Below, one piece after another: positions 3,178-35,081 of a stretch of 35,081 nt of DNA (within the stretch, counting starts at the first letter, position 1; the number at the start of each line of letters is the position of its first letter). The notes beneath the pieces are model-generated. The model worked only from the letters and a program-made list of their open reading frames with translations. It did no database searches and was not told the DNA's origin. The DNA comes from Nanobdellota archaeon (lineage in GTDB: Archaea; Nanobdellota; Nanobdellia; Pacearchaeales; GW2011-AR1), in NCBI GenBank assembly GCA_030704765.1, contig JAUYDD010000164.1, positions 1 through 35,081 of the forward strand. Reading direction: 5' to 3'. Both the position numbers and the translations under genes were made by a program.

Positions 3178-3200
3178 TTGACAGAAGAGAAGATAGGGGT

Positions 3201-3210
3201 TTATAAAATT
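3201..3210 (-). promoter_or_regulatory. TATA-like box (minus strand AATTTTATAA) 24-33 nt upstream of ATG 3177
   Basis: Lies in the 31-nt gap between the epimerase stop (3209-3211) and the GT4 start. It could be an internal promoter, or simply AT-rich spacer in a co-transcribed pair. Confidence 0.3.
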
Positions 3211-4246
3211 AATTGGTCTTTATAAATAGGTTTTCAGTTCTTTTAATCCAGTCTATAAGACTTTTTACACCTTCTCTTGGAAGAACTATAGGTTCCCATT
3301 TCAGATATTTTTTTGCTTTAGATATATCTGAGACATAATATCTTAAATCACCAAATCTATCGGGGCCATGTATAATATTTGATTTTTTTCCTGTTATTTC
3401 TTCTATTAATCTAATACATTCAATTAAAGAAATCATTGTTTTTTCTCCACCACCTATGTTATAGATTCCTGGAACCTGATTATTATAAAATGCGTCAAAT
3501 GCTAAAGCTACATCTGTTGCATAAAGTATATCCCTTAATTGTTTTCCTGTACCAAATATAGTCAAGGGTAATCCTAAGTAGTTTCTTATAGCAAAATTAG
3601 CTACCCATCCGTGATCTTCTCCACCAAACTGGTTTGGACCATAAATGCCTGTTAATCTAAAACTTGCTGCCTTTAATTTATATGTATCCATATAACATCT
3701 AACATAATTTTCAGCTGAGGATTTAGATGCATGCAAGGGAGTCACTACACCTTGTAATAATGCTTCTTGTTCATCTATTGTTACTGGACTTCTTACATAC
3801 CGAGTCTCTATTTCTTTTAATTCTGAATTTATTTTATCAGGACCATAACAATGAATAGAATTGCAGGAAACAATAGGAATATCGTATTTTCGTGCTGCTT
3901 CCAATACATTGAATGTTCCAATAACATTGGTTGTAAAATCTAATTCAGGGTCTTCAGAACTCAAGGTCATTGTAGGTTGTGCTGCAGTATGACTTATAAA
4001 ATCGCATCCTTTAGCATAATTCAATAGTGTTACTTTATCCCTTATATCTTCAACTACAACTTTTACACCCATAGCTTCTAATAATTTTTGATTATAGTAA
4101 CGTGATTCTGGTTTCATATAAGAATTTTTAGAAAACTCATATTTAGTAAGATTATCATAAGCTATGACTTCCCAACCTTTTTTCTTATACATCTCGCAAA
4201 TATGGCTTCCTAAAAAGCCACATCCGCCTGTAATTAAAACTTTCAT
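3209..4246 (-). CDS. NAD-dependent sugar epimerase/dehydratase (extended SDR), CDP-paratose/tyvelose 2-epimerase-like
   Basis: 345 aa. N-terminal Rossmann motif MKVLITGGCGFLGSH. FGGEDHGWVANFAIRNYLGLPLTIFGTGKQLRD resembles the CDP-tyvelose epimerase family block. The expected YxxxK reads LHASK (see finding). Confidence 0.75.
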   Translation of the reverse strand: MKVLITGGCGFLGSHICEMYKKKGWEVIAYDNLTKYEFSKNSYMKPESRYYNQKLLEAMGVKVVVEDIRDKVTLLNYAKGCDFISHTAAQPTMTLSSEDPELDFTTNVIGTFNVLEAARKYDIPIVSCNSIHCYGPDKINSELKEIETRYVRSPVTIDEQEALLQGVVTPLHASKSSAENYVRCYMDTYKLKAASFRLTGIYGPNQFGGEDHGWVANFAIRNYLGLPLTIFGTGKQLRDILYATDVALAFDAFYNNQVPGIYNIGGGEKTMISLIECIRLIEEITGKKSNIIHGPDRFGDLRYYVSDISKAKKYLKWEPIVLPREGVKSLIDWIKRTENLFIKTN

Positions 4247-4301: not shown

Positions 4302-4391
4302 GCTTTTGGCATATATAGGTAATATTTAAATAACTTAAAAAGATTTCTATAAAATTAGAACTGCTTATTGATTTCGGATTTTATTAATCAT

Positions 4392-4400
4392 ATTTATAAA
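4392..4400 (+). promoter_or_regulatory. TATA-like box (ATTTATAAA) about 27 nt upstream of ATG 4423
   Basis: Position and sequence fit an archaeal TATA box. No SD-like element precedes the ATG. Confidence 0.35.
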
Positions 4401-4422
4401 CCCATTAGTTTTTTATGGGATT

Positions 4423-5553
4423 ATGCCAAAAATGCCTTTATCCCATAAATTGAAGCTGTTTTCAAATTTTATATATGCAGGAAGATTTAGAGAAATCTAT
4501 AATATGATTTGGGTATATCCTTTATGGTGGAACAGAAAAACTGCAGCTTTTTTATTGAATAATTTTTTTCCTAAACTTGGAATAGACCTATTTCCACCGT
4601 TTCTTGAAATAGAACCAACTACAGTTTGCAATTTCAGGTGTGTCTGCTGTGAACATACTTATTGGAAAGAACCTTCTATAAACATGAGTTTTGAAAAATT
4701 TAAAAAAATTATTGATGATTTTAAGAGACCAAAATGGCTTGGATTAACTGGAATTGGTTCCTCATATCTGAATAAAGATTATCATAAGATGCTGAAATAT
4801 GCTAAATCTAAAGGAACAATAATAGAAGTATTTGATCATTTTGCGCATTTTAAGAATGATGATGAAATAAAAGAATTAATAGAAATAGGCCCTGATTTCC
4901 AGTTTGTTTCTATGTATGGCTCTAGTAAAATATCTTTTGAAAAAGTATGTGTTGGAAGTGATTTTGAAAAAATCATAAAAAATCTCAAGATATTTGTAAA
5001 GTTAAAAAAACAAATGAAAAAAAGATTTCCTATATTGAATTTCCATTATATTGTGACTAGTGAATCAAAGGATGAAATACTTGATTTTTTAGACTTAGTT
5101 CATTCTCTTAATACAGAAGTTGGAGAGATACTTGTGACTCCAATGCTCCATGGATATAAAGAAGCTAAAAAATACGAAGTTAGGATTGATCCTGATTATG
5201 TTAAAAAAGTAGAAGAAAGAGCAAAAAAATATAAAATAGCGGTAACAGTCAATATGTCAGCAAAACAAGAAGCAGAAGGCCTTATTTGCAAACCTCCAAT
5301 CAGGAATTGCAAAGAGTATATCATGCCTTTTATTTTTGTCACAGGTGATGTAACACCTTGTTGCGGTCAAAATGAAGCTAATGCAAGAGATTGGCAGAAA
5401 AACACTTCTCTTGGAAATGTGTTTGAAAGGCCATTTAAAGATATTTGGTATTCTCAAAAATATGTAAATATGAGAAAAATTATAAGAAAGAATAAAGTTC
5501 CAAAAGAATGTCTTTTATGTCCTGCTTATGATATATCTAAATTACATATATAG
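4423..5553 (+). CDS. Radical SAM enzyme with SPASM/twitch-like C-terminal Cys-rich domain
   Basis: 376 aa. LEIEPTTVCNFRCVCCEH contains CxxxCxxC (C-NFR-C-VC-C). C-terminal Cys cluster: CKPPIRNC ... GDVTPCCGQ ... ECLLCPAY. Confidence 0.75.
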   Translation: MPKMPLSHKLKLFSNFIYAGRFREIYNMIWVYPLWWNRKTAAFLLNNFFPKLGIDLFPPFLEIEPTTVCNFRCVCCEHTYWKEPSINMSFEKFKKIIDDFKRPKWLGLTGIGSSYLNKDYHKMLKYAKSKGTIIEVFDHFAHFKNDDEIKELIEIGPDFQFVSMYGSSKISFEKVCVGSDFEKIIKNLKIFVKLKKQMKKRFPILNFHYIVTSESKDEILDFLDLVHSLNTEVGEILVTPMLHGYKEAKKYEVRIDPDYVKKVEERAKKYKIAVTVNMSAKQEAEGLICKPPIRNCKEYIMPFIFVTGDVTPCCGQNEANARDWQKNTSLGNVFERPFKDIWYSQKYVNMRKIIRKNKVPKECLLCPAYDISKLHI

Positions 5554-5601: not shown

Positions 5602-5976
5602 TTATTCTTTTGGAAGTTTATCTTTTTCTTTTCTTTTCTTGCTTTTTTCAAATACTTCTTCGAATTCTCCTTTTAAGTATTTAATAAAATCTTCTTTAAC
5701 GTCTTTTGAAATTATGTTTTGATTTACTAACTTATCAAGCGCTTCTTTTTTTTCTAATATCATGTTTAATTGTTTCATGTCCTGTTCATCAGCATAATTT
5801 CTATACATTTCTGTTAAACCCCATATAGTTAAAGGTATTCCTATTAACAAAAGAAGGTTTATAGAGCTAGAATTTACATCAGCTAAAGAAGAAAAATACC
5901 ATGCTGATCCAGTACATAAGAGGCCAAGAAAAGTGATTAAAAAGTCGTATTTTATATATTTTGGAATGTCAGCCAT
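5602..5976 (-). CDS. Small membrane protein (two predicted TM helices plus charged coiled C-terminal tail), function unknown
   Basis: The ORF track starts at GTG 5982. The ATG at 5976 lies 5 nt downstream of GAGG, so I prefer 5976 as the start. Hydrophobic stretches FLITFLGLLCTGSAWYF and LLLLIGIPLTIWGL, followed by a Lys/Glu-rich tail. Confidence 0.45.
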   Translation of the reverse strand: MADIPKYIKYDFLITFLGLLCTGSAWYFSSLADVNSSSINLLLLIGIPLTIWGLTEMYRNYADEQDMKQLNMILEKKEALDKLVNQNIISKDVKEDFIKYLKGEFEEVFEKSKKRKEKDKLPKE

Positions 5977-5978
5977 AT

Positions 5979-5985
5979 TCACCTC
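5979..5985 (-). promoter_or_regulatory. Shine-Dalgarno-like GAGGTGA for the internal gene starting at 5976
   Basis: Minus strand reads AGTAGAGGTGAATATG. The element overlaps the TAG stop (5985-5987) of the upstream small ORF. Confidence 0.5.
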
Positions 5986-8271: not shown

Positions 8272-9819
8272 ATGTTAAAAGAAAACTTTAAAATAACTCT
8301 TGTTTCAACTGCTACTTTTCCTTCTGACCAAGGAATCAGGACAATATCAAGTGTACTTAAAAAAGCAGGTTATGATACAAAGATAATATTCCTAGCATAT
8401 TCAGAAAATTATAAAAAAATGTATCCAGACTCAGTCTTGGAAAAAGTGAAAGAATTATGCAAAGATTCAAAATTAATTGGAATTAATTCTTTTGCATCAA
8501 CAGCACCAAGAGCAGAACAAGTGATTAAAAAATTAAAAGAGCTAAATGCACCTATAATTTGGGGAGGTATACATGCTACTATCTCTCCTGAAAAATGCAT
8601 TGGACATTGCGATATTGTCTGTGTTGGAGAAGCAGAAGATGCATTTTTAGATTTAGTCAAAGCTATTCAAAAGAAAAAAAATTTCACAAAAATAAAAAAT
8701 CTATGGATAAAAAAATATAAGAAAATAATAAAAAATCCTGTCAGACCCTTACTTGATGATTTAGATTCCCTTCCTCCTGTTGATTATGATATAGAAGACC
8801 ATTATATACTCCATAATAATGATATAATTGATTTTAGAGAAGAAGATTTAGGGGGACAGATATTCTTTTTGACAGGAAGAGGATGTCCATATGGATGCTC
8901 TTACTGCAGTAATGATTTTTTCAATAAGTTATATGAAGGAAAAAGGAAAAAAATATTAAGATGGCATAGCCCGGAATATATTGTTGATTGTGTTATAAAC
9001 TTAAAAAATAGATTCAAGACTCTAAAATATTTTGATATAAGGGATGATACTTTTTCTATGCGTTCTGCAGGAGAAATAAAAAAGTTTTGTAAACTTTACA
9101 AAGAAAAAGTGGGCATGAGATTTAAATGTCTTGGAGACCCCCATACTATTACTGAAGAGAAAATCAAAGCCCTTGTTGAAGCAGGATGCACTGATATTAT
9201 TATAGGCATACAAGGTGTTGAAAGAGTCAATAAATATATATACCATAGGAATCAAACAGACAAGGATGTATTAAGAGCTTCAAAAATCATCAACAAATAT
9301 AAAGATAAACTGACTGTTATGTATGATGTCATAACGTCTAATCCTTATGAGACTTCTGATGATATAATAAACATGATAAGGCTATTGCAAAAAATACCTA
9401 AACCTTATTATCTTTCTGTTAATAATCTTGTTTTTTTCACATCAACACCTTTATATTGCAAAGCCAAGGAAGATGGCATTATACAAAAAGAAGAGGATTC
9501 TGCAGCTGATTTGAATTATTGGGATAGGGCAGCACATATTAAATTAAAAAAGAAAAACATGTATCTTAATCTTATCCTAAATATGATGAGAGGTGTAGCT
9601 ACAAAAAAAAGATATGGAATAATGCCTAATTATCTTATTAATTATCTTTTAGAAGAAGATAGAGTAAAAAGAAATCTGGAAAATACATTTCCTACATATA
9701 TAGCATTGTTCTTTGTTGGATGGAGTGATACTATAAGGGAGAGAATAGCAAAACCTCTTTATAGAAGCATGCCAGTTTCATTTAAAGCTTGGTATGATAA
9801 AGTAAGGTATAGGGTATAG
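8272..9819 (+). CDS. B12-binding-domain radical SAM enzyme (class B)
   Basis: 515 aa. N-terminal Rossmann-type domain (ISSVLKKAGYDT, WGGIHATISPE, VCVGEAEDAFLDLV), then FFLTGRGCPYGCSYCSN (CxxxCxxC). Clear paralogue of 14618..16051. Confidence 0.8.
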   Translation: MLKENFKITLVSTATFPSDQGIRTISSVLKKAGYDTKIIFLAYSENYKKMYPDSVLEKVKELCKDSKLIGINSFASTAPRAEQVIKKLKELNAPIIWGGIHATISPEKCIGHCDIVCVGEAEDAFLDLVKAIQKKKNFTKIKNLWIKKYKKIIKNPVRPLLDDLDSLPPVDYDIEDHYILHNNDIIDFREEDLGGQIFFLTGRGCPYGCSYCSNDFFNKLYEGKRKKILRWHSPEYIVDCVINLKNRFKTLKYFDIRDDTFSMRSAGEIKKFCKLYKEKVGMRFKCLGDPHTITEEKIKALVEAGCTDIIIGIQGVERVNKYIYHRNQTDKDVLRASKIINKYKDKLTVMYDVITSNPYETSDDIINMIRLLQKIPKPYYLSVNNLVFFTSTPLYCKAKEDGIIQKEEDSAADLNYWDRAAHIKLKKKNMYLNLILNMMRGVATKKRYGIMPNYLINYLLEEDRVKRNLENTFPTYIALFFVGWSDTIRERIAKPLYRSMPVSFKAWYDKVRYRV

Positions 9820-9840
9820 AATTATGTTCTTTTATCAAAA

Positions 9841-9998
9841 AAACAATGGGCCACCACACCCTAAAGGTTTTTTGCCACAGCTAAAAAATCGCCTGCTGGC
9901 GAGTGTGGTTTGATAGGCCCTTGTTTTTAGGATGCTCAAGAATTGAAAACTGTAACATTTGCTACGACCACATGATAAATCATGAGGTTTTCAATTCT
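9841..9998 (+). repeat. GC-rich structured intergenic element, copy A (branched hairpin + GGATGCTC core + nested hairpin)
   Basis: AAACAATGGGCC 9841-9852 pairs with GGCCCTTGTTT 9916-9926. Inside that stem, CCACAC 9854-9859 pairs with GTGTGG 9903-9908, GGTTTTTT 9866-9873 with AAAAAATC 9883-9890, and there is a GCC-TGCT-GGC hairpin at 9891-9900. Core TTTTTAGGATGCTCAAGAATTGAA at 9924-9947. AGAATTGAAAAC 9939-9950 pairs perfectly with GTTTTCAATTCT 9987-9998, enclosing CATGA-TAAA-TCATG (apex ATAAAT). Hand count for 9841-9926 is about 48% G+C. Confidence 0.6.
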
Positions 9999-10695
9999 CG
10001 ACATAATAAATAGTCGGATCTTTAATACCTGCCCAGTAAAAACCCTCTTTCCTTAACATACAAGAAAGACAATAACCGCAAGGTTTATTTTTTATAGGAG
10101 CGTAACATGAAAATGTTTCTTTAAAATCAACACCTAATTTTTTTCCAAGCAAGATTATATCTTCTTTATCCTTGTTTATTAAAGGAGCATAGATTTTTCC
10201 ATTGATTATTGAAGCTATGGATTTTAATTTATTCATCTGTTTAATGAATTTTTTTGTTGAATCAGGATAGCTTTCTTTTCCTTCGCATTTGAATCCTACA
10301 AAAATATTATAATCTTGTTTATTCTTGATATTATAAGATTCTGCAAGAGCTATTGCATAAGCCAAAAATATAACATTTCTTTGAGGAACATAATATTTAT
10401 CAGACTCTTCTTTTGTATCTTTCAAATCCTTTCTTGATAATCTGTTCACTTTTTTTATTGAATTTATCAAAGATGTAGAAATTTTCCCTAATTCTCGCAA
10501 GTTTATTTCAATGAAATCTGCATTCAAATATTCAGAACATTTTCTTGATGCTTTTCTTTCAGACAAAACATTTCTCTGATTATAATTAAAAAATAGGATT
10601 AGTATATTATTATAATTGAGCCTATGCTTTACATAATAAGCAGTAGTTACACTATCTATACCTCCAGAACATAAAATAATTGCATTTTTTATCAT
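9991..10695 (-). CDS. queC: 7-cyano-7-deazaguanine synthase QueC (PP-loop ATPase)
   Basis: 234 aa. PP-loop ILCSGGIDS. C-terminal Zn-Cys block FSCYAPIKNKPCGYCLSCMLRKEGF...DPTIYY is characteristic of QueC/ExsB. Confidence 0.8.
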   Translation of the reverse strand: MIKNAIILCSGGIDSVTTAYYVKHRLNYNNILILFFNYNQRNVLSERKASRKCSEYLNADFIEINLRELGKISTSLINSIKKVNRLSRKDLKDTKEESDKYYVPQRNVIFLAYAIALAESYNIKNKQDYNIFVGFKCEGKESYPDSTKKFIKQMNKLKSIASIINGKIYAPLINKDKEDIILLGKKLGVDFKETFSCYAPIKNKPCGYCLSCMLRKEGFYWAGIKDPTIYYVEN

Positions 10696-10940: not shown

Positions 10941-10988
10941 TTAATTGCATAAAAATGTTTTTATACCCTAAATTTAATATATTCCTAC

Positions 10989-14617: not shown

Positions 14618-16051
14618 TCATGTTTTAAAAAGATAATCTGAAAATTTCCTGATTGACTTTATAGTTTCTAATTTAGATCCAAAAATTATAGAATAAATTT
14701 TCCACTGAGACCATCCATATGAAACAAAATAGACAAAATCATATAGTTTATTCTTAGGAAATTTTATTAATTGTTTTATTATTGGATGAAAAATTGGAAA
14801 TTTTACAGCTATTATGCTAAGTTTATACAGGTTTTCTAACCTTCTTTTATCAAAATCACTATAATTTAAAACAGTGGTACTGAGATAACTGCTACCTAAT
14901 TTATCAAAATCTCCATCAAAATAATTGTTTTCTATTGAATAGGTTGAAAGCACAGTTCCAGGATAGGGTTGAAAAATTGAAAAACCTGGTAAGTCTGGTT
15001 TACATAAAGAATTTAGGCTTATTGTTTTAAAAGAATAATCTAAATCCTCTCCTGGAAGGCCTAGCATATTTTGAGAAGTTAGTTTTATACCTTTTTCTTT
15101 TATTATTTTACATGCATTAATTATCTGTTCATTAGACATATTTCTCTCAAGAATCTCTTTTCTTATTTTTTCATCTCCGGTTTCAATACCCATATAGACT
15201 AAGATGCAGTTAGCTGACTTTAATTTTTCAGCTACTTCATCTGTCATTAAGTCAGCCCTTATATTGCATATAAAGGGCAGATTTATCTCTTTTTTATATT
15301 TATCACAAAAATCAAATAACCAAGTTTTGTTCATATTGAATGTATCATCTACGAACTTCACAACACCTAATGGAAAATTTTCTTTAACATATTTTATTTC
15401 TTCTATAACATTATTTACACTCCTTTGCCTGACTAATTTACCTTTAACAGTTGAATATAATTGATTATACTGCCTATTGAAGCAATAAGTGCATTTAAAT
15501 GGACATCCTCTACTAGTAATAAATCTTTTTATCTTCAAGTCTTTTAATAAATTATCTTTTTTATAAATCATCTCTCTATCTGGAAAAGGAAGAGAATCTA
15601 AGTCATGTATTGGTTTTCTTAAACAATTTTTATAAATACGACTTCCTTTTTTGACCCAAAAATTTTTAGTTTTTTCATAATTTTTATCTTTTTTGTATCT
15701 TTTTATAAAATCTAAAAATGCCTCTTCCCCTTCTCCTCGGCATATAGCGTCTACTCCTTCTTCATTTATCATTTCTGGATAAAAAGTAGGATGAGGACCT
15801 CCAAATATAGAATAAACTTTAAGTTCTTTTTTTATTTTTTTGTTTAACTCTATATACTCTTTATGGTTTCCAGTTGTTATACTATAAGCCACTATATCTG
15901 GCTTTAATTCCTTTAATTTTTCAAAAACATTATCAGTCTTAAAACATACTAAATCCGTATCATGCCCTGATTTTTTTAATACTGATGATAAAATCATGAT
16001 ACCAAGAGGATCTGAGATAGTAATCATCTTTATTATAAACACTATTTTCAT
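14618..16051 (-). CDS. B12-binding-domain radical SAM enzyme (class B), paralogue of 8272..9819
   Basis: 477 aa. LSSVLKKSGHDT, FGGPHPTFYPE, ICRGEGEEAFLDFI, NFWVKK, DLDSLPFPD, then FITSRGCPFKCTYCFN (CxxxCxxC). Confidence 0.8.
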   Translation of the reverse strand: MKIVFIIKMITISDPLGIMILSSVLKKSGHDTDLVCFKTDNVFEKLKELKPDIVAYSITTGNHKEYIELNKKIKKELKVYSIFGGPHPTFYPEMINEEGVDAICRGEGEEAFLDFIKRYKKDKNYEKTKNFWVKKGSRIYKNCLRKPIHDLDSLPFPDREMIYKKDNLLKDLKIKRFITSRGCPFKCTYCFNRQYNQLYSTVKGKLVRQRSVNNVIEEIKYVKENFPLGVVKFVDDTFNMNKTWLFDFCDKYKKEINLPFICNIRADLMTDEVAEKLKSANCILVYMGIETGDEKIRKEILERNMSNEQIINACKIIKEKGIKLTSQNMLGLPGEDLDYSFKTISLNSLCKPDLPGFSIFQPYPGTVLSTYSIENNYFDGDFDKLGSSYLSTTVLNYSDFDKRRLENLYKLSIIAVKFPIFHPIIKQLIKFPKNKLYDFVYFVSYGWSQWKIYSIIFGSKLETIKSIRKFSDYLFKT

Positions 16052-20646: not shown

Positions 20647-21932
20647 TAAATTTTTTGAAGGAAAAATGCTATATAAGCATTTGCATATTCTAATGACAAA
20701 TCTTCCCAGTTTTCTGATTTTACAGGATACACTTTTTTTAATAGAATCCTAGATTTTTCAATATTTTCGCTTTCATTGTTTTCTATACCTGTAATAAGAT
20801 ATATTAAAGAAGCAAATATAATGAGGTCTGGAGAACTATTAAAAAATAATCTTTTATAAGTTATACCTAGGGATTTTAATCTTTTATAATACTTATATTT
20901 CATTATTAATGTTAAGATTGGAAGAAATATAACTGAAATATTACTAAAATTTATACCTGACTTTTTTTTAATTATTTCTTTTAGATAAGGCATATAAAAA
21001 TCCTTCCTCATTTCCAAGATATTTTTAGATAAATCAGTTATATTGTTAATTTCTTTTTTTAAAAAATTATTAAAAAAATATTTTGAAACTTCTAATATAG
21101 AATCTCTTGCTATAAACCACTCTTTTACAACATCCTTATTTGGAAGTTTTTTTGGATCAATTTTCCATTTAATAAATTCTTCTATTTTTTTATCAAGAGA
21201 TGGTATAACCTTAAAAAGTTCTGGAAAATCAGTTTTATAATTTTTTTTAAATATCAACATTGAATTTTTATATCCTATTTCATATTTTCCTGAAACTAAT
21301 AATAAAGAAGTACAAATTGCAGCATAAGCTTGTTGAATTATGTAGGTTAAAAATTCCTTATCATGTTTGTCTTCTTTTGAAAAATATTCTATCATCTGGC
21401 TCATCCTATCCAATAATAGCTTTGCACCTTCTGACAAAGGCATTTCTTCTAATTTATATTCGGGAATTAAATCTCGAACGTCTTCACCAAACAATATATA
21501 AGAATATTTTTTTAATTCAATTGTCCTTATTCTTGGAAGAAGTTTTTTTAAATCATTTGGAGTATCGACCTTTAAATCTATATAAAAATTTTCTTGTAAT
21601 TTTTGTTCTTCTTTTTTAAATGGATAAAAATTTATTATGCCTTTATATCCTAATTTTTTAGATATTTCTATGGATAATCTGTCTGAATCTTCCTTAGATA
21701 GCTTAGTTTTAGATATCACTTGTATATCATAATCATTATAAGGATAATATTTTTTATTAATTAATTTTACTGGACCTTCTCCCCTTGAAAAACCTCCGGT
21801 TAGTATTATTGAAATAGTATCAGGAATAGATTTTTTTATTTCTTCGCAAATTAATTCCATATCTTTTTCGATTTTCTCATTTGCTTTTTTTGAAATAGTG
21901 TACTTCATTTTACCTTTTAAATAAGAAATCAT
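20646..21932 (-). CDS. Hypothetical protein, possible Pol-beta-type nucleotidyltransferase fold
   Basis: 428 aa. SIILTGGFSRGEG ... YNDYDIQVIS loosely fits hG[GS]...D-x-D. The rest is helical and unrecognised. A Met at codon 9 (nt 21908) would remove the 23-nt overlap with the upstream gene. Confidence 0.35.
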   Translation of the reverse strand: MISYLKGKMKYTISKKANEKIEKDMELICEEIKKSIPDTISIILTGGFSRGEGPVKLINKKYYPYNDYDIQVISKTKLSKEDSDRLSIEISKKLGYKGIINFYPFKKEEQKLQENFYIDLKVDTPNDLKKLLPRIRTIELKKYSYILFGEDVRDLIPEYKLEEMPLSEGAKLLLDRMSQMIEYFSKEDKHDKEFLTYIIQQAYAAICTSLLLVSGKYEIGYKNSMLIFKKNYKTDFPELFKVIPSLDKKIEEFIKWKIDPKKLPNKDVVKEWFIARDSILEVSKYFFNNFLKKEINNITDLSKNILEMRKDFYMPYLKEIIKKKSGINFSNISVIFLPILTLIMKYKYYKRLKSLGITYKRLFFNSSPDLIIFASLIYLITGIENNESENIEKSRILLKKVYPVKSENWEDLSLEYANAYIAFFLQKI

Positions 21933-23397
21933 TTAAATGACCGAGGACAGCTTTTATTCCTCTTAAATTAAACTTGAAATCTTGCCAGTTTTTTATGCCT
22001 TTTATCCTAGTAAAAATATATTTTGGTGTTAAAAATATAGTATAAATTTTTCCACAGACTTTTGCTACATCTTTAGCATCTGAATCTTTTGTCATTAATA
22101 CTGGTTCAGTCATATCATATCTTTCGTAGTCTAGTGGATTGAATAAAAACCAATTGTTTTCTTTTGCTTCTTTCCATAATGGAGTTCCTGGATAAGGTAT
22201 CAAAACAGTTGCTTGTAATAAATCAGCTTTTCCAGATTGCATAAGAATTTTAGCTAATTCAAAGGTTTTAAGTGCATCTTCTTTTGTTTCCCAAGGATAG
22301 CCAACAATCATTGTCAAATGCACTGTTAAGCCTGCAAGTTTCGCCATTTCACATCCTTTTATTATATCTTCGACTTTTATTCCTTTATTTAGCTTATCTA
22401 AAGTGGATTGGTTAGCAGACTCAAGTCCAAATTTTAATAATCTAAAGCCTGCTTTTTTCATAAGATAATAATCCTCTTGATCTAAACATCCAAATCTCAT
22501 ATTACAAGAATAATATATTTTTTTATTATAACCTCTTTCTATTAAACCATTACAGATGTCTTTTAACCATTTTCCTGTTGTCAAGGTTCCAGAGTCATCA
22601 AATATTTCCTTCACATTATACTTTTCAATTAATAATCCTATTTCATCTAAAACATTTTTTACGCTCCTGTTTCTGAATTTAGGATAGAGAACGGGCCAGG
22701 CACAAAAAAGGCATTTTCCCCACCAACAATCTCTTCCAGACATAATATAGAAAAAAGGCTTTCCTATCAGGTTATATTCTTTTTCATAATTTTTCCATTT
22801 TGTAAGTTCCCGATCTATAAATGGCAATGCATCTAGAATGTGCTTCAGTTGGAATTTTCCATTATTAATAATAGTTTTTCCTTTTTTATAATAAATCCCT
22901 GCAGGAATCTTCTTATTTTTTATAAGAGCTTCTATTAATTCATCCAATAATATATCAAAATCTCCTCCGCATAAAACAAAATCTACTTTAGAGTTTTCTA
23001 TAGATTCTTGTGGAAAAGAGGTCACATGATCTCCCATAATAATAATTCTTAATTTAGGAAACTTTTCTTTTAATTCATCAATAAGTTTCCAATGTTGCTT
23101 TATTACAGGTGTTTTTGTCTCAAAAGCAAATATTTGAGGTTTTTCTTTTTCTATAAATAATAAAAAATCTTCAAAAGAAGTCTTTTCTGCAATTGAATCA
23201 TGCCAAACAACTTCATGGCCTTTAGCTTTTAATAGAGTAGCTGCACTAGCTAAGACTATTGGAAAAATATAACTAGGATTGCTAAACCACTGGAATTGCC
23301 TATTTTGCGACAACAAAGGAATTCCTTTTTCAGATTCTGTTGGAGGATAGCCTATTAAGAGTTTCATTTTATCAAAAAACCTTTTTAAAATGCCCAT
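21910..23397 (-). CDS. B12-binding-domain radical SAM enzyme with CX4CX2C cluster spacing
   Basis: 495 aa. N-terminal Rossmann-type domain (LLKAKGHEVVWHDS, IIMGDHVTSFPQE, VLCGGDFDILLDEL), then SGRDCWWGKCLFCAW. Alternative start at Met11 (nt 23367). Confidence 0.75.
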   Translation of the reverse strand: MGILKRFFDKMKLLIGYPPTESEKGIPLLSQNRQFQWFSNPSYIFPIVLASAATLLKAKGHEVVWHDSIAEKTSFEDFLLFIEKEKPQIFAFETKTPVIKQHWKLIDELKEKFPKLRIIIMGDHVTSFPQESIENSKVDFVLCGGDFDILLDELIEALIKNKKIPAGIYYKKGKTIINNGKFQLKHILDALPFIDRELTKWKNYEKEYNLIGKPFFYIMSGRDCWWGKCLFCAWPVLYPKFRNRSVKNVLDEIGLLIEKYNVKEIFDDSGTLTTGKWLKDICNGLIERGYNKKIYYSCNMRFGCLDQEDYYLMKKAGFRLLKFGLESANQSTLDKLNKGIKVEDIIKGCEMAKLAGLTVHLTMIVGYPWETKEDALKTFELAKILMQSGKADLLQATVLIPYPGTPLWKEAKENNWFLFNPLDYERYDMTEPVLMTKDSDAKDVAKVCGKIYTIFLTPKYIFTRIKGIKNWQDFKFNLRGIKAVLGHLNDFLFKR

Positions 23398-27093: not shown

Positions 27094-27143
27094 CTGATTT
27101 ATAGAAAATCAGAGTTTTTAAAATTAACAGTATATAAAAATCA

Positions 27144-27263
27144 AGAAAACCATAAGTTTACCACACACTAAAGTGTGTGGTTTGTTTAGTGGTTTTCTGG
27201 ATGCTCCAAAATCGATAATCCTGTCTTATCTCCACATCATAAATGATGTGGTTATCGATTTTG
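27144..27263 (+). repeat. GC-rich structured intergenic element, copy B
   Basis: AGAAAACCA 27144-27152 pairs with TGGTTTTCT 27190-27198, enclosing CCACACAC-TAAA-GTGTGTGG at 27161-27180. Core TTTTCTGGATGCTCCAAAATCGAT at 27193-27216. CAAAATCGATAA 27207-27218 pairs perfectly with TTATCGATTTTG 27252-27263, enclosing CCACATCAT / ATGATGTGG (27232-27251) with apex ATAAAT. Confidence 0.6.
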
Positions 27264-27289
27264 CACATATAAATCAAAAAGCCTAAAAA

Positions 27290-33271: not shown

Positions 33272-34855
33272 ATGGTAGACATAATCTTATTTCAACCTAA
33301 ATGCGGGATATGGGATATAATGGGTATAAGGGTGCCTATAGGATTATTGAGTATAGCTGCAGATCCAGTAAAAAAGGGGTATGAAACAGCCCTTATAGAC
33401 CAAAGAACTAGTATAAATTGGAAAGAAGAATTAAAAAAACAAATAAACTCAGGAGCAAAACTAGTATGCTTGACTACTATGGTTGGAGAACAGATAAAAT
33501 ACATGTTAGAGGTCTCTAAATTTATCAAATCAATAAATCCTAGAATTATCACAGTTCTTGGAGGAAGCTGGGCTCAGACAGAACCTGAAATGTGCATGCA
33601 GGATAAGAATCTTGATATTGTATGTTATGGAGAAGGAGACTACATATTATCAGAATTAATGGAATATATAAACAAAAAAAGAAAGATAGAGAATATATTA
33701 GGTATTATCTATAGAGATAAAGAAGGAAATTTAAGAAAAAACAAAGAAAGGGCTTTAATAAAAGATCTAGATGACTTACCTAAGATTCCGTATAATCTTA
33801 TTGATCTTAAAGATTATACTGCAGTGGGATTTAGAGCTGGAAAGCAATCTATATCCCTAGTATTAAGTAGAGGTTGTCCATATAGATGCACTTTTTGTTC
33901 GATTGTAAAATTTTATAATAGATCTTGGAGAGGTTATTCCTTAAAAAGGGTTATGGAAGATATAAATGAATTAGATATAAAATATAATATCAAGGATTTT
34001 TATTTCAATGATGATAATATTGCAGGCAATCCAAAAAGATTTTCAGAATTTGTAAAAATGCTTGTTGACAAAAACCGAGACTATAATTGGGGTATAGCTG
34101 GAATCAGAGCTGATACTATTTTAAGTCTTGATGAAGAAACCTTGCAAAACCTTGTAAAAAGCGGGTGTAAAAATTTAGATATAGGAGCTGAATCTGGAAG
34201 CCAAAGAATCCTAGATATGGTTCATAAGGATGAAAGTTTAGAAAAAATTAGAGAAGCAAATAAAAGACTTTCTAAATATCCTTTGATTGTAAAATACACT
34301 TTTATGGGAGGCTTTCCAACAGAGACTGAAAAAGAATTCTTAGAAACATTAAGATTCAAAAGAATTCTTGAAAAAGAAAACCCTCATGCAATAGGTCTTG
34401 TTTTTTTCTATACTCCTTTTCCAAGAACAGAAATGTTCTCCACAGCTGTGGGTCATGGATTAAATCCTCCTAAAAACCTTATTGAATGGGCTGATTTTAA
34501 TTATGACACTTGGACAAAAAAACAAGCATCCTGGCTTACAAAAAGAAAAATTAAATTAATTGAAAATTCTGTTTTTATATCTTATTTTGCTAATAATAAT
34601 CTTAGCTATAAATATCCAAATCCTTTGATGAATTTCATGTTCAAAACATATTATCCTCTTGCGAAATTCAGGTATGACAATAATTTCTATTCATTAATGA
34701 TTGAAAAAAAAGCAGCAGATGTTATTACAAAATTGAATGAAAAATATGATTTATTCAACAGGATAAAGAAAAAATCAAAAAAATTTTCTGAAATCAAAAA
34801 AATCTTTCATAAGATTTTTTGGAACATTCAAAATCTTTTAGAGATTTTGAAGTAA
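33272..34855 (+). CDS. B12-binding-domain radical SAM enzyme (class B)
   Basis: 527 aa. LLSIAADPVKKGYETALID, LGGSWAQTEPE, VCYGEGDYILSELM, then LVLSRGCPYRCTFCS (CxxxCxxC). Confidence 0.8.
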   Translation: MVDIILFQPKCGIWDIMGIRVPIGLLSIAADPVKKGYETALIDQRTSINWKEELKKQINSGAKLVCLTTMVGEQIKYMLEVSKFIKSINPRIITVLGGSWAQTEPEMCMQDKNLDIVCYGEGDYILSELMEYINKKRKIENILGIIYRDKEGNLRKNKERALIKDLDDLPKIPYNLIDLKDYTAVGFRAGKQSISLVLSRGCPYRCTFCSIVKFYNRSWRGYSLKRVMEDINELDIKYNIKDFYFNDDNIAGNPKRFSEFVKMLVDKNRDYNWGIAGIRADTILSLDEETLQNLVKSGCKNLDIGAESGSQRILDMVHKDESLEKIREANKRLSKYPLIVKYTFMGGFPTETEKEFLETLRFKRILEKENPHAIGLVFFYTPFPRTEMFSTAVGHGLNPPKNLIEWADFNYDTWTKKQASWLTKRKIKLIENSVFISYFANNNLSYKYPNPLMNFMFKTYYPLAKFRYDNNFYSLMIEKKAADVITKLNEKYDLFNRIKKKSKKFSEIKKIFHKIFWNIQNLLEILK

Positions 34856-34998
34856 TCGCCTACTCCATCCTGAAGGATGGAGTTTGATCGGCGATTTTTC
34901 TGATTCGGAAATTTTTAGGATGCTCGAAAATTGAATGCAAGTAAACTACCTCATGTCAAGAACCATGGAATAAATTCCATGGCGTGTTTGGTTCTTGA
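34854..34998 (+). repeat. GC-rich structured intergenic element, copy E1
   Basis: AATCGCC 34854-34860 pairs with GGCGATT 34890-34896, and ACTCCATCC 34862-34870 with GGATGGAGT 34875-34883 (loop TGAA). Core TTTTTAGGATGCTCGAAAATTGAA at 34912-34935 is 22/24 identical to 9924-9947. TCAAGAA 34956-34962 pairs with TTCTTGA 34992-34998, enclosing CCATGG 34963-34968 / CCATGG 34977-34982 with apex AATAAATT. Confidence 0.6.
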
Positions 34999-35003
34999 GC
35001 ACG

Positions 35004-35029
35004 TCAGAAATTTTTTAATAAATTTCTGA
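35004..35029. repeat. Hairpin TCAGAAATT/AATTTCTGA spanning the start of the terminal repeat
   Basis: Arms at 35004-35012 and 35021-35029, loop TTTTAATA. The 3' arm is also nt 2-10, so at the left end of the window the hairpin is complete only if the molecule is circular. Confidence 0.6.
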
Positions 35030-35081
35030 GCGCACCCAAAAAACTTCTGAAAGTTTTTTAGTGTGCTCCAAAATGCCTTCT
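35020..35081. repeat. Terminal direct repeat, right copy (identical to 1..62)
   Basis: See left copy. 62/62 identity, read by eye. Confidence 0.95.

Follow-up and report, generated by a model that had tools for sequence, protein, structure and literature searches.

Several kinds of small repeated element come closest to the one described here. Rickettsia palindromic elements (RPEs) are palindromic and multi-copy, lying both between genes and in-frame within unrelated genes (PMC10969869). Regulatory MITEs (short for miniature inverted-repeat transposable elements) are small hairpin repeats between genes that can bring terminators or outward promoters (PMC10969869), and archaeal MITEs are known from Sulfolobus (SM1-4), Halobacterium and Haloquadratum, the archaeal hosts in a 2024 review including no DPANN lineage (PMC10969869). 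We describe a family of two-domain palindromic elements found in a 35,081-nucleotide contig (JAUYDD010000164.1; hereafter the window, by which we mean the whole stretch analysed), and we consider it likely that these elements are a non-autonomous palindromic mobile DNA repeat, MITE- or RPE-like, of AT-rich DPANN genomes (Pacearchaeota, Woesearchaeota and Nanoarchaeota). In the literature searched we found no description of the family, which appears to be previously undescribed. The original prediction, made from the letters of the window, had recognised a set of GC-rich structured elements and had left their nature between a functional structured RNA and a protein-recognised DNA hairpin, with repetitive extragenic palindromic (REP) sequences and their REP-associated tyrosine transposases (RAYTs), or IS200/IS605, as examples of the latter. 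The DNA hairpin reading fits in kind, because a pair of filled and empty sites and element-free syntenic loci were found; the functional RNA reading did not hold up, and membership of the REP/RAYT or IS200/IS605 groups is not established.

At least four copies had been predicted, all on one strand, and the four named are present at those places on the + strand; the core GKRTGCTCNARAAT has four unique exact matches in the window, against 0.43 in shuffled sequences when up to one mismatch was allowed. The predicted boundaries were too narrow: copy A, placed at 9841-9998, extends from ATCAAAAAAAC at 9834 to GACAT at 10004 (element ends are known to +/- 3 nt). Two further sequences, at 9-106 and 34854-34998, exist as predicted but not as separate copies. 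Positions 1-62 are identical to 35020-35081 (62 nt), and this overlap falls inside copy E2, so that "9-106" and the end of the window are one copy; E1 and E2 are one composite or tandem unit spanning the overlapping contig ends, which resembles the composites in loci L182, L219 and L249. The copies and their parts are listed here, with scores in bits from our covariance model R1.

9834 to 10004, + strand: copy A, whole element, subfamily T1, from the 5' end ATCAAAAAAAC to the tail GACAT; 78.7 bits
9834 to 9929, + strand: copy A domain 1, with A-run, GC-rich two-tier hairpin P1/P2 and T-run TTGTTTTTA, from the single-sequence fold
9930 to 9937, + strand: copy A junction core GGATGCTC, in which ATG.CTC pairs with the tail GA-CAT
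9938 to 9999, + strand: copy A domain 2, from fold and covariation
9938 to 9950, + strand: copy A domain 2, 5' arm AAGAATTGAAAAC
9951 to 9967, + strand: copy A domain 2, loop TGTAACATTTGCTACGA
9968 to 9987, + strand: copy A domain 2, inner hairpin with ATAAAT apex
9987 to 9999, + strand: copy A domain 2, 3' arm GTTTTCAATTCTC
10000 to 10004, + strand: copy A tail GACAT, the 3' boundary, from the position logo
27140 to 27268, + strand: copy B, whole element; 118 bits, fold z = -8.2
27199 to 27206, + strand: copy B core
27232 to 27251, + strand: copy B inner hairpin
27264 to 27268, + strand: copy B tail CACAT
34793 to 34822, + strand: extra domain-1-like unit (A-run, hairpin, T-run) inside the end of the open reading frame (ORF) at 33272-34855
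34854 to 35007, + strand: copy E1, with its inner domain 2 inverted
34854 to 34899, + strand: copy E1 domain 1
34918 to 34925, + strand: copy E1 core GGATGCTC
34950 to 34957: copy E1 inverted inner part, reverse-complemented tail CTCATGTC
34963 to 34982: copy E1 inverted inner part, hairpin
34997 to 35005: copy E1 inverted inner part, reverse-complemented core GAGCACGTC
1 to 110, + strand: copy E2, with a GCGCAC..hairpin..GTGTGC module, the variant core GTGTGCTC (42-49), domain 2 and the tail GGACAT (105-110)

Copy A scored as it did from outside the training set of R1 (E 6e-16), while copy B belonged to that set. The P2 loop of copy A holds an extra insertion, the same expanded P2 being found in L212, L250 and L254, and over 15 metagenome loci have members of its subfamily, T1. 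In E1, domain 2 is mostly inverted, scoring 27.4 bits on the - strand (34950-35032) and 19.8 on the + strand; E2 scores 33.9 bits with a fold z of -7.95, and a match of 29.3 bits at 34774-34888 covers the extra domain-1-like unit. Several details of the original prediction were borne out: the G+C content of 9841-9926 is 47.7% against 27.5% for the window, A and E1 are identical at 22 of 24 positions by direct reading, and B and E2 have TGCTCCAAAAT in common. The last codons and stop of queC do lie inside the 3' arm of copy A, in that the last three codons and the stop (VEN*) are encoded by this arm and the tail (9991-10004). The ATAAAT apex, taken as conserved, stands at three apices in the window and is not conserved across the wider family, whose general feature is instead a loop of the UAAA type, placed about 24-27 nt upstream of the GACAT A.

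The wider scan called for in the original prediction did yield further copies, with at least about 100 copies in metagenomes and five DPANN loci from metagenome-assembled genomes (MAGs). Over 185,579 species genomes (GTDB), a scan for a 20-nt core pattern gave mostly chance matches; the five true homologues that it also brought up are all from DPANN MAGs, two being contigs of Candidatus Pacearchaeota and one each coming from Woesearchaeota, Nanoarchaeota and Nanoarchaeia. In the 722 kb of GTDB loci matching this pattern, only these five DPANN loci match R1. A metagenome scan with the core and tail pattern returned at least 120 stretches; among the matches listed, about 100 clearly belong to the family (samples of groundwater, peat, lakes and sediment), and 82 non-redundant copies remain after de-replication. 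The core-pattern scan of viral contigs gave chance matches only. The consensus reads ATCAAAAAAACAATG-GTGCC-ACCACAC-loop-GTGTGGT-TTGnnnnA-GGCAC-TTGTTTTTW-GGATGCTC-N-ARAAT-arm-X-inner hairpin-arm'-ATTYT-N'-GACAT-(A/G)A, and the unit consists of two adjacent imperfect palindromes, domain 1 (ATCA-A7-C, GC-rich hairpin, G-T5-W-GGAT) and domain 2 (ATGCTC-N-ARAAT, arm, loop, inner hairpin, arm', ATTYT-N'-GACAT). Copies are 85-187 nt long, with 2-4 copies in each locus and 4-5 in the 35-kb window, and they fall into recurring subfamilies (T1 to T6 and more) set by the inner segment, the loop sequence being repeated within a subfamily. Copy A closely resembles the L301 copy (by reading, not computed), as compared with QueC relatives at no more than 69% protein identity.

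Pairing is kept while the sequence of the stems diverges, as had been proposed. A 49-sequence alignment gives strong support to four helices. Of its cells, 93% are paired, as against no more than 52% in slid controls, and both sides have changed in 27 of the 45 pairs; the 268 compensatory cells compare with 78 +/- 8.6 in shuffles, none of 500 shuffles reaching the observed value. The junction core GGATGCTC is invariant in all 49 aligned copies, and alignment positions 74-79 pair with 160-165, that is, core ATG.CTC against tail GA-CAT. Single-sequence folds of the window copies have z-scores of -4.0 to -8.2 against shuffles. The original prediction could match the element to no RNA family, and indeed Rfam gave no matches in the window, with only chance matches, well below the gathering score of each family, around A and B.

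The most direct evidence for mobility is a pair of filled and empty sites. Locus L235 holds a copy at 5877-5985 (36 bits), and L167, 98-99.8% identical to it on both sides, is uninterrupted; the empty site (L167) reads ...AATTT-ACA-TTAGTGC... and the filled site (L235) ...AATTT-ACA-C-ATCAAAAATGC...GAGTTTTTG-ACA-TTAGTGC.... Syntenic loci without the element are also found. For instance, the convergent stops of queC and a B12-binding radical-SAM gene lie 1 nt apart in L305, with no element, and 171 nt apart in the window, where the interval holds copy A; the L305 QueC orthologue ends instead in ...RYKQKID*, directly abutting the next gene. No relative was close enough to provide an empty allele of copy A, identity to the nearest QueC homologues going no higher than 69%. 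The orthologues in L240 and L274 of the family 4 glycosyltransferase beside copy B have a plain intergenic region with no element upstream, as does, in L182, the orthologue of the gene beside the L157 copy. R1 finds nothing in 83 kb of four syntenic DPANN loci of about 20 kb, and 4-5 matches in the 35-kb window. The flank logos are A-rich and show nothing else.

Five copies lie within protein genes, in sense or antisense, and keep the frame open, so that they are translated and not spliced. The beta subunit of phenylalanyl-tRNA synthetase (L253) and a flippase (L274) carry an identical element-encoded peptide, which flippase homologues in L240 and the window do not have. A PCMT methyltransferase (L193/L235) of 281 aa holds an antisense copy; the best 120 of its 563 homologues are mostly 215-262 aa, and the closest aligned ones lack the insert of about 40 aa. 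In its homologue P0009 the same loop holds a different insert, encoding SEHP, which could be specified by GAGCATCC, the reverse complement of the core. A U32 peptidase gene (L207) contains an antisense copy, and in a Doc/Fic protein (L093, 315-761) a 105-nt in-frame copy splits the catalytic motif as HPFSDGN|KRT. Against the Pfam Fic model the protein scores 22.5 bits, and 37.2 bits once the 35 inserted aa are removed; judging from the interrupted motif the L093 protein is probably inactivated. Such behaviour has been described for RPEs and other MITEs (PMC10969869). As a separate observation, the PCMT homologue P0005 (278 aa) has another insertion, of 38 aa, at a different position (alignment columns 204-241), perhaps one more repeat inserted within a gene.

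On balance, mobile DNA accounts for the evidence better than a functional RNA does. If the elements were a family of structured non-coding RNAs, transcribed from the + strand and keeping their stems for RNA folding, whether as trans-acting, guide-like small RNAs using the variable loop X or as cis-regulatory elements, then the strong covariation in four helices, the very stable folds and the loop sequences repeated within subfamilies (e.g., GCTACGACC in T1) would find an explanation, the T3 loop GAGCATTC could pair alternatively with the core GGATGCTC in a switch-like manner, and the absence of an Rfam match would make the RNA a new one. We nevertheless regard this as improbable, and strong base-pair covariation is by itself no proof of a functional RNA. 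G.U and A.C mismatches are equally common in the fixed structural alignment (54 vs 56), and a strand-specific G.U excess (63:17) was an artefact of greedy stem extension that disappeared there. No positional signal for a promoter at a fixed distance upstream of ATCA was found, conservation beginning abruptly at ATCA, and a T5-7 run sits between the two domains, an oligo-T run being an archaeal termination signal. The flanking genes occur in all orientations; start-codon subfamilies aside, the downstream gene lies on either strand about equally often, and within single loci the orientation of copies is mixed. Neither orientation bias nor asymmetric mismatches, as strand-specific recognition of single-stranded hairpins (REP/REPIN-RAYT or IS200/IS605) would predict, were seen. 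Copies inside ORFs are translated through in both orientations, several copies of one subfamily occur per genome, and syntenic loci and entire 20-kb stretches of related genomes do without the element. In L280, L117 and the window copy E1 the segment between the arms, or all of domain 2, is inverted, so that the loop sequence is complemented. Alternatively, the family might be an ancient, host-encoded and non-mobile module marking transcription-unit boundaries, vertically inherited and repeatedly lost, in which a bidirectional terminator is joined to a core promoter for a leaderless gene. Domain 1 has an A-run, a hairpin and a T-run on both strands and resembles an oligo-T terminator that would act on archaeal RNA polymerase in either direction. 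The UAAA loop of the inner hairpin lies at -27 to -24 from the A of GACAT, and the C preceding that A resembles an initiator. The inner segment of T3 and T5 holds a full TATA box at about -30 (-30 to -23), TATA-like octamers peaking at -31 to -27 from the tail, and the ATG of the T3/T5 tail GACATG (or ATGGACATG in T5) is the true start codon of about 17 unrelated housekeeping genes, among them the genes of RadB, ProRS, MTAP, a HIT protein, a CBS protein and a subunit of RNase P. For RadB, a T3 copy is seen in L242 and an ordinary TATA promoter in L266. With the TATA box at about -30 and the ATG exactly at the tail, T3/T5 copies are probably, on the mobile-repeat reading as well, portable promoters of leaderless genes.

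A boundary module of this kind nonetheless seems to us a poor candidate for the family as a whole. The genes that copies A and B face lie on the opposite strand and turn their 3' ends towards them, so neither copy is a protein-gene promoter; divergent genes flank about 30% of copies, and others are found inside ORFs. The element is precisely present or absent between contigs that are 98-99.8% identical, and its sequence is far more conserved than the surrounding genes (copy A and L301 by reading, with QueC at no more than 69%). Copies nested in the loops of other copies, or with extra palindromes in the core (L219, L182, L249 and the window E1/E2), and tandem copies would serve no boundary purpose. 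It is unlikely, in our estimate, that the family is a domesticated, portable transcription-boundary cassette, copied by a hairpin-recognising enzyme, including onto start codons, and thereby rewiring operons, or that its transcribed hairpins also act as RNAs. We give almost no credence to integron attC-like or other site-specific recombination sites marking gene cassettes: attC sites likewise conserve structure over sequence and share one orientation, as the window copies share one strand, and integrons have been reported in archaeal MAGs, but RYYYAAC...GTTRRRY is not found at the element ends by direct reading, no integrase was seen among the 30 window ORFs scanned, the copies are about 8-17 kb apart with many genes in both orientations between them, and in other loci orientation is mixed and copies lie inside ORFs.

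Several points weigh against a mobile repeat. The single filled/empty pair could represent a precise deletion instead of an insertion. Any target duplication would span 0-3 bp, this pair giving a 3-nt ambiguity (ACA) and the L093 junction allowing at most 1 nt. Over the whole element, terminal inverted repeats are very weak if present at all: the two domains are each palindromic on their own, and the outer ends (ATCAAAAAAAC and the reverse-complemented tail ATGTCNARAAT) share, by direct reading, only TCAARAA-like similarity. No transposase or recombinase was identified among the ORFs inspected, with no dedicated search for Y1 (PF01797), and no neighbouring protein family recurs among 722 ORFs. 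The subfamilies are highly conserved across distant samples, which could reflect a function at the level of the host and not only mobility; the exact abutment of T3/T5 copies on start codons is not predicted by random insertion; and the element may have an additional RNA role.

We nonetheless prefer a mobile DNA repeat, and its biochemistry may be imagined as follows. The element would spread via a trans-acting enzyme reading the hairpin shape together with the invariant motifs, namely the 5' ATCA-A-run, the junction GGATGCTC and the 3' GACAT, and with recognition by shape the arm sequences would be free to drift while remaining complementary. Alternatively, the complementarity of the arms might be maintained by homogenisation through intra-palindrome repair. 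After insertion, the A-run, hairpin and T-run of domain 1 would terminate transcription in both directions, and T3/T5 copies would place the A of GACAT at +1, promoting leaderless genes.

A number of other readings of the motifs were tried and set aside. A K-turn or C/D-box reading of AUG-CUC-N / N'-GA-CAU fails as N and N' covary as a Watson-Crick pair, for an archaeal guide RNA the element has neither a C/D box (direct reading) nor an Rfam match, and an H/ACA reading of the ACA tail fails on the one-sided internal loops. The bulge geometry is wrong for a bulge-helix-bulge splice motif, and the open frame of all five intragenic copies likewise speaks against splicing. Variation in a supposed leader peptide (MLxN) or Cys/His mini-ORF tracks stem covariation and not codon wobble, a pseudoknot between the domain-1 bulge and loop X shows no covariation (by reading), and the likeness of the arms to the 3' handle of a CRISPR repeat (AGAATTGAAAAC) was dismissed, the arms being inverted and not direct repeats, with no array. 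A tRNA/tmRNA search found none, and scans for sigma-70 promoters and intrinsic terminators are uninformative for an archaeon.

The genes of the window have envelope-glycan functions only: glycosyltransferase families 1, 2, 4 and 9, PMT_2, flippase, radical-SAM, QueC and methyltransferases. Its gene starts lack a Shine-Dalgarno sequence and show, at -30 to -23 from the ATG, a TATA-like TTTATAAA box, the pattern of archaeal leaderless transcripts, and all the closest QueC homologues that bear organism names are from Nanoarchaeota or Pacearchaeota; the host looks like a DPANN archaeon. At many window promoters (4380-4422, 3178-3240, 10941-10988) TTTATAAA is followed by CCC (TTTATAAACCC), possibly a promoter-proximal motif specific to the lineage. 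The contig's apparent circularity is probably a repeat-caused assembly artefact, because its ends lie in the repeat, no replication or phage genes were found among the window ORFs scanned, and in related genomes this gene cluster sits on chromosomal contigs 64-195 kb long. An independent Logan contig likewise terminates within copy A, and two window proteins at the contig junction have no database record. The radical-SAM genes of the window are as follows.

8272 to 9819: B12-binding radical-SAM paralogue
14618 to 16051: B12-binding radical-SAM paralogue
21910 to 23397: B12-binding radical-SAM paralogue
33272 to 34855: B12-binding radical-SAM paralogue
4423 to 5553: SPASM radical-SAM enzyme

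This radical-SAM set lies within a glycosyltransferase/flippase/PMT_2 cluster whose arrangement is kept in Nanoarchaeota and Pacearchaeota contigs (L304, L305), and the presence of such enzymes amid a glycan cluster suggests a pathway for an unusual methylated surface glycan. In the last of the paralogues, the C-terminal 27 or so codons (34774-34855) read through an element-like A-run, hairpin and T-run, and its stop or C-terminus may be element-derived. Elsewhere, ORFs called at L221 116-406, L200 3941-4525 and L182 2318-2818 are spurious or N-terminally extended, starting inside the element (MCHHTLK..VVC.RHLF.GCS..), and the resulting Cys/His-rich peptide could be mistaken for a zinc-finger motif. 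At L193 2538-2619 there is a different palindromic indel of about 96 nt (GCATATAGAGAACTGC...GCAGTTCTCTATATGC), absent from the near-identical L235, which suggests that these organisms also harbour another small palindromic repeat, unrelated to the first.

DPANN genomes are usually described as tiny, streamlined and poor in mobile DNA. If the elements are indeed mobile, they would represent an overlooked force in DPANN genome evolution, with several copies per 10-35 kb in some lineages, entering housekeeping genes in-frame and sometimes supplying promoters. In practical terms the repeat breaks assemblies, makes false "circular" contigs and distorts gene calls, examples being C-termini that derive from the element, inserted peptides and false Cys/His-rich ORFs. 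As a marker for seeking the mobilising enzyme, the covariance model and the consensus are ready to use.

How, then, does the family compare with known systems? It shares with MITEs in general a small, non-coding and multi-copy nature (85-187 nt; 2-4 copies per locus) and insertion polymorphism, as seen at the filled L235 and empty L167 sites and the element-free syntenic loci. The archaeal MITEs are likewise non-autonomous small repeats in archaeal genomes, but they have target duplications and terminal inverted repeats matching known insertion sequences, whereas the family described here shows structural covariation and in-frame intragenic copies. Among regulatory bacterial MITEs, Correia/CREE, ERIC, RUP, BOX and the SPRITE terminator-like element are also small non-coding hairpin repeats between genes; the present family differs from them in having no clear whole-element terminal inverted repeats, no demonstrated target duplication and no parent insertion sequence, and its promoter is of the archaeal TATA type, serving leaderless genes. 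With REP/REPIN-RAYT and IS200/IS605 it shares arms that stay complementary while drifting, short motifs flanking the hairpin, and clusters and composites, and our data are compatible with insertion without target duplication; however, REP units measure 20-40 nt and carry a GTAG head, motifs unlike those of the present family, and there is here no strand bias within loci and no Y1/HUH gene among the ORFs inspected (no dedicated search being made). To our knowledge RAYTs occur in bacteria only. The RPEs, whose properties were reportedly set out by Ogata et al. in 2000, are in several respects similar: both families are palindromic, multi-copy and about 100-170 bp long, both belong to the reduced, AT-rich genome of a host-dependent organism, and both lie between genes as well as in-frame in housekeeping genes, adding a peptide of about 35-40 aa. 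The present element, though, is built of two palindromes that have oligo-A/oligo-T flanks and an invariant core, GGATGCTC, at their junction; intragenic copies make up only about 5 of the 82, as against a large share of RPE copies, and some subfamilies carry a promoter. As the host is archaeal (DPANN) and not Rickettsia, and the sequence unrelated, the element is an analogue of the RPE and not a member of that family. More generally, because its host, its sequence and its two-palindrome architecture with an invariant core all differ, it belongs to none of the RPEs, regulatory MITEs, REPINs or IS200/IS605-derived palindromes.

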